Under the pieces are notes generated by a model. It saw only the letters and a list, made by a program, of their open reading frames with translations. It did not search any database and was not told the DNA's origin. The position numbers were made by a program, and so were the translations under genes. A DNA stretch of 35,102 nt, from assembly GCA_037445915.1 (NCBI GenBank), contig JBBIJQ010000018.1, forward strand, positions 479-35,580, read 5' to 3'. This document shows positions 28,684-31,032 of the stretch, in pieces. Each line of letters opens with the position of its first letter. Positions within the stretch are counted from its first letter, which is position 1. This stretch comes from Planctomycetales bacterium (GTDB lineage: Bacteria; 4484-113).

Positions 28684-30020
28684 TTGTAAGCAGCACGACA
28701 ATCTGGGAGGCTTTACGCGGCTTGCTGCTGGGATGGGGGATTCCCTACGCCTGGGCGCAAGCAATCATGCTTTTTGTCGCTTTCTTAACCGTTGCGCTCT
28801 TCATCATTATCACCGTGCTTCTGCTCACCTTGCTAGAGCGCAGGCTTATCGGCTGGATTCAGCTTCGCCCCGGCCCGAACAGAGTTGGTGGAAGGACAGG
28901 TATCCTCCAGCCCATCGCCGACGCGCTCAAGCTCCTATTCAAAGAAGACATTATTCCCCTCAATGTCGACCGCCCCAGCTACCTTTGCGCCCCATATGTG
29001 GTGTTCATTCCAGTGATGCTCATGTTCGTGGTGCTTCCTTTCGGGATTTCCATCATCAATGGGGCCTACAAGTACATCATCATTTCCGACCTTAATATCG
29101 GCCTCGTATACATCATCGCGCTTGGCTCAATTCAAGTCATAGGCATAATTATGGCGGGGTGGGGGTCGGGTAACAAATACGCGTTGTTCGGCGCAATGCG
29201 CTCCGTAGCCCAGATTATCAGCTACGAGGTGCCGATGGTGCTGTCGCTGATTAGCGTTGCGTTGTTTGCCGGCAGCCTGTCGCTGATTGATATTGTCCAG
29301 GCGCAGAGCACACTGTGGGCATTTATCCCGCTTTTCCCCGCGTTCATTATTATGCTTATAACAGCGATTGCGGAAACCAACCGCTGCCCGTTTGACCTGC
29401 CTGAGGCTGAGAGCGAAATTGTTGCTGGCTTTCACATTGAATACAGCGGGATGCGTTTTGCGCTGTTTTATCTGGCGGAATATGTCTCCATCTTCGTGAT
29501 GAGCTCCCTTATAACAATCTGCTTTTTTGGCGGATGGAAAGGCCCGATGTTCCTTGGCGAATCAGGCCTTTGGTTTACGAGCATGTTTTGGTTTATGGCA
29601 AAGACGTTCTTCTTCGTCTGGTGCTTTATCTGGTTCCGAGGCACATTTCCGCGCATCAGGGTTGACCAGCTCATGGTTTTTGCCTGGAAATTCCTGCTGC
29701 CGGTCGCGGTCCTACAGCTTATTTATGTTGGATGGGCCATTACTTACCGAAACCCGGTGTTTTCCGCCTTCCGCATTCCGTCAAACAGCGCGCTTCAGGC
29801 TTATAAAGGCGAACTAGCCAGCTACGACTATATGACGATGGGCGGCGCGCTCAAGGTTCTCACTACATCCGAACAAGTAGCGTTTGGCATTAGCGTCATC
29901 GTTGCCATCGGAGTTGCGCTTTTCCTGGCAGCGATTCTCTGGCGGACGTATCTCGGCTACAAGCCAAGCCACGTTTTCACAATGGAACTAGCCCAAAAGG
30001 GGAGGGAAAACGATGACTGA
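28680..30020 (+). CDS. nuoH: NADH-quinone oxidoreductase subunit H with a C-terminal extension
   Basis: LERR..GWIQ.RPGPNRVG, QPIADALKL..KE, QIISYE, PFDLPEAESE and PRIRVDQ. Confidence 0.95.
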   Translation: MIVSSTTIWEALRGLLLGWGIPYAWAQAIMLFVAFLTVALFIIITVLLLTLLERRLIGWIQLRPGPNRVGGRTGILQPIADALKLLFKEDIIPLNVDRPSYLCAPYVVFIPVMLMFVVLPFGISIINGAYKYIIISDLNIGLVYIIALGSIQVIGIIMAGWGSGNKYALFGAMRSVAQIISYEVPMVLSLISVALFAGSLSLIDIVQAQSTLWAFIPLFPAFIIMLITAIAETNRCPFDLPEAESEIVAGFHIEYSGMRFALFYLAEYVSIFVMSSLITICFFGGWKGPMFLGESGLWFTSMFWFMAKTFFFVWCFIWFRGTFPRIRVDQLMVFAWKFLLPVAVLQLIYVGWAITYRNPVFSAFRIPSNSALQAYKGELASYDYMTMGGALKVLTTSEQVAFGISVIVAIGVALFLAAILWRTYLGYKPSHVFTMELAQKGRENDD

Positions 30021-31032
30021 AGAAACTAACATCAGCATCCTGCCTGAGCCTGAAGCTGCTAGTGAATACCACGAAAAGCCGTTCGCTGAAACCGTTTCCA
30101 GCGGGTTTAAAGTGTTTGCGCTATTCGCAATCGGATGGTTTCTGATAGTCTTCCTGATTCTGAAGGGGCTTCACCTTCTTGATGAAACCGCAGGTCTTAC
30201 TTTGAGCGGAAAGATCGTTCTTGCTCTAGTCGCAGGCACGCCTCTCGTCCTGGCTTTGTTAGTCCTTCTCCGCTTTTACTGGTGGCTTAGCCTTTACATG
30301 GCGCACTTCAGCATCTGGGGGCGCGCCCTGAACTGGGCGAAGTATTTCTGGTTTGTGGCGCTTATAGCCTCTACGTATGCTTACATAGACCCGCTTGACA
30401 ACGTTGGGAGGAGTATCGCCCGCGCGCTTCCCATAGACCAGCTAGCGGTATACGGAATACCTCCGTTCAATCCAGCGTTAGTGCTTTTCCGGCTTGTTGT
30501 GCTTCTCCTGATTTTGCTTTTCTGCTTTAGCTACATCAAGCTTGCTGCGGAAATTGCATGGAACTGGATGAAGGAAGCCTGGGAGATGGCGGTGTCATTT
30601 CCTCAAGGGCTTGTGATAAGCGCTACGAACTTTCTTCGCCCGAATATATGTGTTGAGTACCCCGAATACCGGGACGAGCTTCCTGAGAACTTTCGTGGTC
30701 GCCATTTGCTGGCCTCGGATGATAGCGGCAAACACTTGTGCATCGCATGCCGCGCGTGTGAGCGCGCTTGCCCGGACAGGCTCATTCTCATCTCCGCAGT
30801 CCGCAATCCAGAGACCAAGAAGCTTGAGCTTACCGGCTTTCTACTTGACAATTCTAGGTGCTGTTTTTGCGGGTTGTGCGAAGACTCCTGCCCAACCTAT
30901 GCCGTGCGGCATACAACTGACTTTGAGTATTCGTGTTACGACCGAAGCGACTTGGTTTTGGATCTTTTTGGGGAATACATTGTGCGCACCGCGGAGGCGC
31001 GCGGCAAGCTAGGAGGTGCCAATGTCAGCTGA
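30013..31032 (+). CDS. nuoI: NuoI-like 2x[4Fe-4S] subunit fused to an N-terminal multi-pass membrane domain
   Basis: EYPE, FRGRH, CIACRACERACP and CCFCGLCEDSCP. The first ~190 aa contain four or more hydrophobic segments. Confidence 0.9.
   Translation: MTEETNISILPEPEAASEYHEKPFAETVSSGFKVFALFAIGWFLIVFLILKGLHLLDETAGLTLSGKIVLALVAGTPLVLALLVLLRFYWWLSLYMAHFSIWGRALNWAKYFWFVALIASTYAYIDPLDNVGRSIARALPIDQLAVYGIPPFNPALVLFRLVVLLLILLFCFSYIKLAAEIAWNWMKEAWEMAVSFPQGLVISATNFLRPNICVEYPEYRDELPENFRGRHLLASDDSGKHLCIACRACERACPDRLILISAVRNPETKKLELTGFLLDNSRCCFCGLCEDSCPTYAVRHTTDFEYSCYDRSDLVLDLFGEYIVRTAEARGKLGGANVS

Follow-up and report, generated by a model that had tools for sequence, protein, structure and literature searches.

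A window of 35,102 nucleotides from a Planctomycetales bacterium of the GTDB lineage 4484-113 (contig JBBIJQ010000018.1, positions 479 to 35,580 of the forward strand) was analysed, and one of its genes, nuoI (30013..31032, +), was found to code for a protein of 339 aa in which a NuoI core is preceded by a domain with four predicted transmembrane (TM) helices. With these features the protein departs from the type of the small peripheral subunit, which has 160-180 aa and no TM helices. The best explanation, to which we give a probability of about 0.55, is that the gene encodes the NuoI of a second complex-I-like enzyme that is devoid of the N-module, with the orphan four-helix domain acting as an accessory anchor, a tether between the Q-module and the heel of NuoH.

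A NuoI subunit with a predicted membrane domain

The fused gene has an ATG start, with a Shine-Dalgarno sequence GGGAGGG (30000-30006) seven bases 5′ of it, and its 339 codons are followed by a stop. It overlaps nuoH by 8 bp, the nuoH stop codon TGA (30018-30020) falling inside nuoI as was described in the initial annotation of this DNA. Twenty-one full-length homologues share 36-71% identity with the protein.

The NuoI core occupies residues 199-317 (30607..30963, +) and aligns with model positions 1-117 of the 121 of TIGR01971 (NCBIfam), which is by far the best-scoring family, with 103.4 bits in the protein scan and 106.2 bits in the genome scan. Pfam places two Fer4 units at residues 240-300, with Fer4, Fer4_7, and Fer4_9 all above cut-off. 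By Pfam and alignment, two CxxCxxCxxxCP motifs are found here, the first at C243-P254 (30739..30774, +) and the second at C283-P294 (30859..30894, +), which we take to be the binding sites of clusters N6a and N6b. Their cluster cysteines (C243, C246, C249, C253, C283, C286, C289, and C293) are invariant in all 21 aligned full-length relatives. The earlier claim that both [4Fe-4S] motifs are intact in the C-terminal part is thereby borne out. As judged from motif, profile, and gene position, between nuoH and nuoJ, the fused protein is a divergent NuoI. In the AlphaFold2 model of the whole protein the ferredoxin part is poor, with a predicted local distance difference test score (pLDDT) below 50, but this is without bearing on its identity as NuoI, because that identity rests on sequence profiles. 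The size comparison made in the initial annotation also holds, as the canonical NuoI of the same genome has 167 aa and that of E. coli is given as 180 aa in the accessible text of its structural description (PMC8357420).

The N-terminal membrane domain comprises residues 1-198 (30013..30606, +) and starts with an acidic tail (residues 1-29), after which come the four predicted helices. TM1 (residues 30-52; 30100..30168, +) is predicted by Kyte-Doolittle hydrophobicity and AlphaFold2. TM2 (residues 64-88; 30202..30276, +) belongs to a helix that continues to residue 99 through a conserved FYWW stretch, while TM3 (residues 109-125; 30337..30387, +) is aromatic-rich and more weakly hydrophobic. 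A DPLD motif (residues 126-129; 30388..30399, +) opens the loop between TM3 and TM4 (residues 126-153). TM4 (residues 154-176; 30472..30540, +) is continuous with a junction helix (residues 177-207; 30541..30633, +) that takes the place of the N-terminal stretch of canonical NuoI and in which S195 and G199 are invariant.

The Kyte-Doolittle scan, run with a 19-aa window and a cut-off of 1.6, gave strong segments at residues 27-57, 61-97, and 148-183 and a weaker one, rich in aromatic residues, at ~105-123, so that the ‘at least four’ hydrophobic segments first reported can be specified as three strong ones and one weaker one. AlphaFold2 predicts long helices at residues 30-52, 64-99, 109-125, and 154-207 with pLDDT values mostly of 82-93, the last of these running unbroken into the start of the NuoI core. 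When the membrane domain was folded alone, four long helices were again obtained, with a mean pLDDT of 76.9 and a predicted template modeling score of 0.63.

Among the 21 full-length relatives, the residues invariant in the membrane part are P77, W102, W113, D126, P127, and N153, in addition to residues of the NuoI core. The relatives fall into three families (f1, f2, and f3), and W90, W102, D126, and P127 are invariant across all of them, including the cysteine-less forms, while P77 is invariant among the forms bearing iron-sulfur motifs. On this pattern of invariance the membrane domain is under constraint. No conserved charged residue, His or Cys lies inside the predicted helices in the aligned relatives of families f1-f3, which argues against a cofactor or ion site.

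Relatives of the membrane domain and their distribution

Ten sequences of the membrane domain were made into a profile (A2), which was run against 1,835,955,588 representative proteins of all lengths and returned 11 matches at E ≤ 0.001, all of which are NuoI-linked. These consist of three members of the NuoI alignment (A1), two truncated fused forms, a 138-aa fragment with only the membrane part (P0026), and five cysteine-less forms; no free-standing homolog of the domain was present among the proteins of this set. The membrane domain had no match at E ≤ 10 among PDB sequences, its 10 members matched no Pfam family below 0.05, and a search of the ESM Atlas gave no usable match.

Fold comparison gave a similar picture. 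With the whole-protein model, the best VIA match was the fumarate reductase anchor FrdC (1kf6_C; Z 6.6, root-mean-square deviation 4.8 over 101 residues), which is below the noise level for helical models, and the sole near-significant Foldseek rows were NuoI/NdhI chains aligned on the ferredoxin part (E 2.5e-3 and weaker). The domain alone gave a best Z of 6.5 against generic helical hairpins, again below noise level. The fold comparison of residues ~1-190 proposed in the initial annotation therefore produced no convincing match, the best Foldseek E-value for the domain alone being 2.4. The likeness to FrdC was dropped, as its score is below noise and it vanishes when the membrane domain is folded alone. 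Origin by duplication of a neighboring subunit was also rejected, because hhalign comparisons with NuoA, B, C, H, J, K, L, and M gave a probability of at most 1.2%. On these sequence and fold comparisons, the membrane domain is an orphan, found nowhere outside this NuoI in the databases searched.

A word-indexed search of 5.8 billion proteins identified 25 relatives of the fused protein, of which 21 are full-length (335-366 aa) and align end to end. The alignment of these 21 left out P0012, P0019, P0024, and P0025, which start inside the membrane domain; together with P0032, these database entries (188-295 aa) were considered as possible short forms and rejected as truncated gene calls. A second database search, with the ferredoxin part alone, yielded 21 proteins, all of the fused type. 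Within the phylum of the window, the A2 profile has a match in 22 of 24 genomes and in all 13 of those at least 90% complete; the two that lack one have a completeness of 84 and 85%. Except in a frameshifted genome of the same genus (G007), the matched frames are all open and 338-403 aa long. The orthologous fused nuoI of that genome (locus L014, 3228-4336) is split by a single frameshift at its GIPPFNP codons and is otherwise collinear. The assembly looks long-read, and the split is probably due to a sequencing error and not genuine.

A pattern search of species-representative genomes gave 255 matches, of which 200 code for a relative, and loci were taken from the best 80 of these 200. In eleven loci (L009-L019) the match to the query begins at residue 42 or before it; they have the same operon, with a NuoI of 342-364 aa. 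From the best 80 loci, 75 NuoI open reading frames (ORFs) were evaluated, L014 and L022, L025, L027, and L028 being set aside. Hydrophobic segments before the first Cys motif (residue 243-254) occur in only 10 of the 75 (L009-L013, L015-L019), while the other 65 have their first Cys motif at residue 57-132 and no such segment, save for the borderline cases L077 and L083. The partial matches resembling TM4 in the Zixibacteria loci L022, L025, L027, and L028 were rejected as fusions; here the tblastn alignment had continued past the stop codon of nuoH, the nuoI behind it being in frame.

In a ferredoxin-domain tree of 77 rows, a branch with support 85/79 has the fused NuoIs on one side, and their neighbors are NuoIs from Zixibacteria and Ignavibacteria. 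A great distance (branch length 6.7) separates the fused NuoI from the canonical one of the same genome, and the fused NuoI therefore belongs to an old paralogous complex and is no recent duplicate.

The suggestion of a lineage-specific extra membrane module agrees well with this distribution, the domain being confined to one phylum, absent from the 65 nearest non-fused NuoIs, and matched by just 11 of 1.84 billion representatives. The search for the same fusion elsewhere, advised in the initial annotation, found it as a single ORF in the 22 phylum genomes. As for misassembly, for which read mapping had been advised, contigs of four runs span positions 29500-31300, including the domain junction at ~30600, with no indels and no joints, and the relatives hold a single gene; the four runs come from one study, possibly the window's own source, and are not independent.

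The variant operon and its host genome

The fused nuoI is part of an operon nuoA-B-C-D-H-I-J-K-L-M (25936-35101, +), and both the window and the contig end inside nuoM. No nuoE, nuoF or nuoG was found in this operon in the ORF list or with Pfam and NCBIfam. The first genes are nuoA (25936..26388, +, 150 aa), nuoB (26379..26993, +, 204 aa), nuoC (26990..27541, +, 183 aa), and nuoD (27538..28683, +, 381 aa). NuoB has the N2 cluster cysteines in an intact CC...C...PGCPP pattern, and NuoD has intact QHPSTHG and DRADY motifs; we take the former to be the N2 ligands and the His and Tyr of the latter to form the quinone site. The window's complex is probably still a quinone reductase, since the clusters, the N2 ligands of NuoB, and the quinone-site residues of NuoD appear intact at the sequence level.

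The nuoH gene (28680..30020, +) encodes 446 aa, and its Pfam core ends at residue 350. The C-terminal extension that follows (residues ~357-446; 29748..30017, +) holds one extra hydrophobic helix, is clade-wide, and is absent from the canonical NuoH of 326 aa. Downstream of nuoI are nuoJ (31016..31537, +, 173 aa) and nuoK (31530..31979, +, 149 aa). The latter product is extended N-terminally by ~40 aa and carries ~15 inserted residues, LKVTRAAFTSAEQVLSP, between TM2 and TM3, features that are conserved across the clade; canonical NuoK has 101 aa. The last genes are nuoL (31981..34140, +, 719 aa) and nuoM (34157..35101, +), which is truncated where the window and contig end. Gene order and sizes recur in all seven of the relatives' loci inspected (NuoH 442-518 aa, NuoI 344-364 aa, NuoK 150-214 aa), and the membrane domain of NuoI co-occurs with the C-terminal helix of NuoH and the N-terminal extension of NuoK. 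No conserved partner gene was found in the operon flanks, as the genes found before nuoA and after nuoM vary from relative to relative; among them are genes for DUF92, M28 peptidase, FAA hydrolase, EF-Tu-like GTPase, and CAP.

The genome to which the window belongs is 1.79 Mb and 90% complete. It also has a canonical nuoA-B-CD-E-F-G-H-I-J-K-L-M-N operon (G000 contig C21, ~13700-27900) with a fused nuoCD of 569 aa, NuoH of 326 aa, NuoI of 167 aa, and NuoK of 101 aa. Two TIGR01971 matches, one canonical and one fused, occur in all nine f1 genomes, including the window's own, and in all four f3 genomes. Genes for pyruvate:ferredoxin oxidoreductase (PFOR) and cytochrome bd are encoded, and no heme-copper oxidase was found in the genome. 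The accessible text of a paper on groundwater metagenome-assembled genomes mentions the 4484-113 group as fermentative only.

Three other features of the window are worth mentioning. An ORF at 8273-10234 (+) encodes a SelB-type selenocysteine elongation factor (GTP_EFTU and SelB winged-helix domains), which implies the use of selenoproteins in this small genome. A weak IS200/Y1-transposase-like ORF (10373-10858, -; E 3e-6) adjoins a gene with a bifunctional-nuclease domain. An ORF of 561 aa in a GC-rich stretch (19593-21278, -) has no Pfam match and lies antisense to the genes for an amidohydrolase and the small chain of carbamoyl-phosphate synthase, and is most likely a spurious open frame.

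Proposed role of the membrane domain

The ferredoxin domain would have to face the cytoplasm. We infer an N-in/C-in topology because there are four helices and the ferredoxin domain is on the cytoplasmic side. This topology would leave the conserved DPLD loop (126-153) on the outer side of the membrane, with the Trp-rich stretch (88-113) on the inner side. The helix into which TM4 is predicted to run directly takes the position of the N-terminal stretch with which canonical NuoI faces the membrane. The ferredoxin domain would thus be covalently tethered to a helix bundle in the heel of the membrane arm, packed alongside NuoH with its extra helix, and the anchor would hold the Q-module on the membrane arm in the manner of a built-in accessory subunit. 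It may also keep the fused NuoI out of the co-resident canonical complex. Stabilization of the complex by the membrane domain, as was first suggested, is plausible. In E. coli, order in NuoI residues 23-38 is seen only in the whole complex, and clade-specific extensions of core subunits enlarge inter-subunit interfaces and stabilize the enzyme, according to the accessible part of that description (PMC8357420).

Several points weigh against the anchor reading. The TIGR01971 score of 103-106 bits is narrowly under the curated cut-off of 113.05 bits, which is why the core is regarded as a divergent NuoI; four relatives within the fused clade score 113-120 bits (G001, G020, and G003 among them), although one of the four reaches this only with neighboring matches in frame. 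The domain is presumed to lie beside NuoH, and the topology comes from helix prediction and the cytoplasmic side of the ferredoxin domain, with charge counts that are only weakly decisive and mildly supportive. A complex prediction for NuoH (alignment A3) and NuoI residues 1-215 (A1), made without controls, gave a median score of 0.30 with the mark at 0.32 and counts neither for nor against binding; A3 had nine rows, eight of them distinct, as L019 and L091 are the same locus. Moreover, no nuoN is present after nuoM in four relatives (L010, L013, L016, and L091). Five good genomes (G006, G008, G016, G019, and G020) have six antiporter-like genes each, of which three are canonical, one is unlinked, and two lie in the variant operon; the window's own genome has five. 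The unlinked gene may provide the subunit missing from the variant operon.

The sister family f2 is informative about what the domain does. At its loci L089, L090, L092, and L093 (genomes G016, G012, G010, and G018) the operon and a fused protein of 333-358 aa persist and the membrane domain of NuoI is retained, while none of the eight cluster cysteines is left. In NuoB of this family the N2 ligands are replaced (CC by DY, C by A, and PGCPP by PGDPP), and NuoD has lost the histidine of THG and the tyrosine of DRxDY. NuoH (530-651 aa; L089, L090, and L092) has a large hydrophobic insertion in the loop between TM1 and TM2, with EAESE changed to EAQNE or EASNE, and NuoK retains its membrane glutamates. 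From these replacements the f2 complex looks redox-dead. As f2 keeps the membrane domain without the redox residues, the role of the domain is argued to be independent of electron input.

A second possibility, which we regard as unlikely, is that the domain serves in sorting and assembly of paralogues, whereby the anchor and the extensions of NuoH and NuoK would mainly insert the fused NuoI co-translationally beside its own NuoH and prevent the mixing of subunits. A canonical complex I and the variant are found together in almost all genomes of the phylum. This reading would fit the co-occurrence of canonical and variant NuoI in all nine f1 and all four f3 genomes, the presence of the domain in 22 of 24 genomes, and the grouping of the extensions on three neighboring subunits. 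However, the two NuoIs are so divergent (branch length 6.7) that mixing may pose no risk, and the idea overlaps with that of a structural anchor rather than excluding it.

There is likewise only a small chance that the NuoI domain, NuoH helix, and NuoK extension form a new membrane module with a separate function, such as an added path for ions or lipids or the coupling to a partner. If true, this would explain why f2 discarded all the redox cofactors of its Q-module yet kept the whole complex, anchor included, and the window's enzyme would be a redox-active intermediate on the way toward a machine not driven by electron transfer.

The docking platform proposed in the initial annotation, with the membrane domain binding another membrane protein or an alternative electron-input module, has become rather improbable. 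An operon without nuoEFG does require another donor, and conserved surfaces would be offered by the DPLD loop on the periplasmic side and by the Trp-rich stretch in the cytoplasm. Nevertheless, f2 keeps the domain though the redox residues of NuoI, NuoB, and NuoD are gone, the genes flanking the operon vary between relatives so that no conserved partner adjoins it, and a donor to NuoI is expected on the cytoplasmic ferredoxin domain and not on membrane helices.

Still more doubtful is a catalytic or transport role, in which the four helices would contribute to an additional site for a quinone, a lipid or an ion at the heel. Retention of the domain in the redox-dead f2, where the membrane glutamates of NuoK are still present, leaves room for a redox-independent membrane function, and the top fold match, at noise level, was to FrdC, a quinol-binding anchor. 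Conserved charged residues, His, and Cys are however lacking from the helices, the invariant residues of the domain being Trp, Pro, and a loop Asp, and the FrdC match did not survive folding of the domain alone. That the fusion is an artefact of misassembly, of a frameshift joining two genes or of a wrongly extended start is scarcely credible, given the conservation of the ORF (22 of 24 genomes, 21 full-length database proteins), the Shine-Dalgarno site at the proposed start, the conserved residues across the junction, the contigs of four runs without indels or joints, and a sole two-frame relative (L014) that is a frameshift in a collinear gene.

Few known parts of membrane enzymes are as conserved as the core subunits of complex I, and NuoI is regarded as purely peripheral. 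The window's protein resembles canonical NuoI, Nqo9, and NDUFS8 (TYKY) in its two CxxCxxCxxxCP motifs, in having TIGR01971 as best match, and in its gene position between nuoH and nuoJ, but it has 339 aa instead of 160-180, the ~198 N-terminal residues forming four predicted membrane helices. Supernumerary membrane subunits are known at the ND1/NuoH heel, namely the mitochondrial NDUFA13, NDUFA3, and NDUFA1 and the cyanobacterial NdhL. The likeness to these is in the proposed role only, that of extra helices beside NuoH stabilizing the junction of the two arms; they are separate proteins, whereas the window's helices are within the NuoI polypeptide, and no sequence or fold relation was found.

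Enzymes of 11 subunits that lack the N-module, such as cyanobacterial and chloroplast NDH-1 and the Nuo11 of anaerobes, share with the window a nuoABCDHIJKL(M) gene set without nuoEFG, as far as the accessible accounts describe them (PMC3144371, PMC11238625). The Q-module residues of the window are intact, and a ferredoxin-type donor is plausible with PFOR present. By likeness to these enzymes, a role as ferredoxin:quinone oxidoreductase is plausible, and reduced ferredoxin would be the most likely donor (PMC3144371, PMC11238625). The membrane-anchored NuoI, the extended NuoH and NuoK, and the lack of nuoN in the relatives' operon set the window's enzyme apart, and are not features of the published accounts in their accessible parts. 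The extensions of E. coli NuoI, NuoB, NuoF, and NuoG are similarly described there as clade-restricted, enlarging interfaces and stabilizing assembly, but these are soluble, C-terminal, and 22-94 residues in length, while that of the window is N-terminal, ~198 residues long, and predicted to be membrane-embedded (PMC8357420). In contrast to the Ehr-type cofactor-poor relatives of complex I, the window's NuoI and NuoB keep all their ligands, with loss in the sister family f2 only, and the f2 complex stems from an operon of the Nuo type (NuoA, C, H, J, and K) and not from an Ehr operon. Nowhere in the open full-text literature was a membrane-anchored NuoI found to be described, subscription journals and supplements being outside the search.

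The anchored NuoI is restricted to one little-studied candidate phylum, and a redox-dead sister complex that retains the anchor adds to its interest. If the proposed role is correct, the fused NuoI would mean that bacteria can evolve by fusion a heel-stabilizing membrane element of the kind that mitochondria and cyanobacteria add as separate proteins. The clade also amounts to a natural experiment, with related operons that appear to have all the redox cofactors, as in the window, or none, as in f2, and with the anchor kept in both. It may therefore be a useful system for the function of the complex I membrane arm when this is uncoupled from electron transfer.

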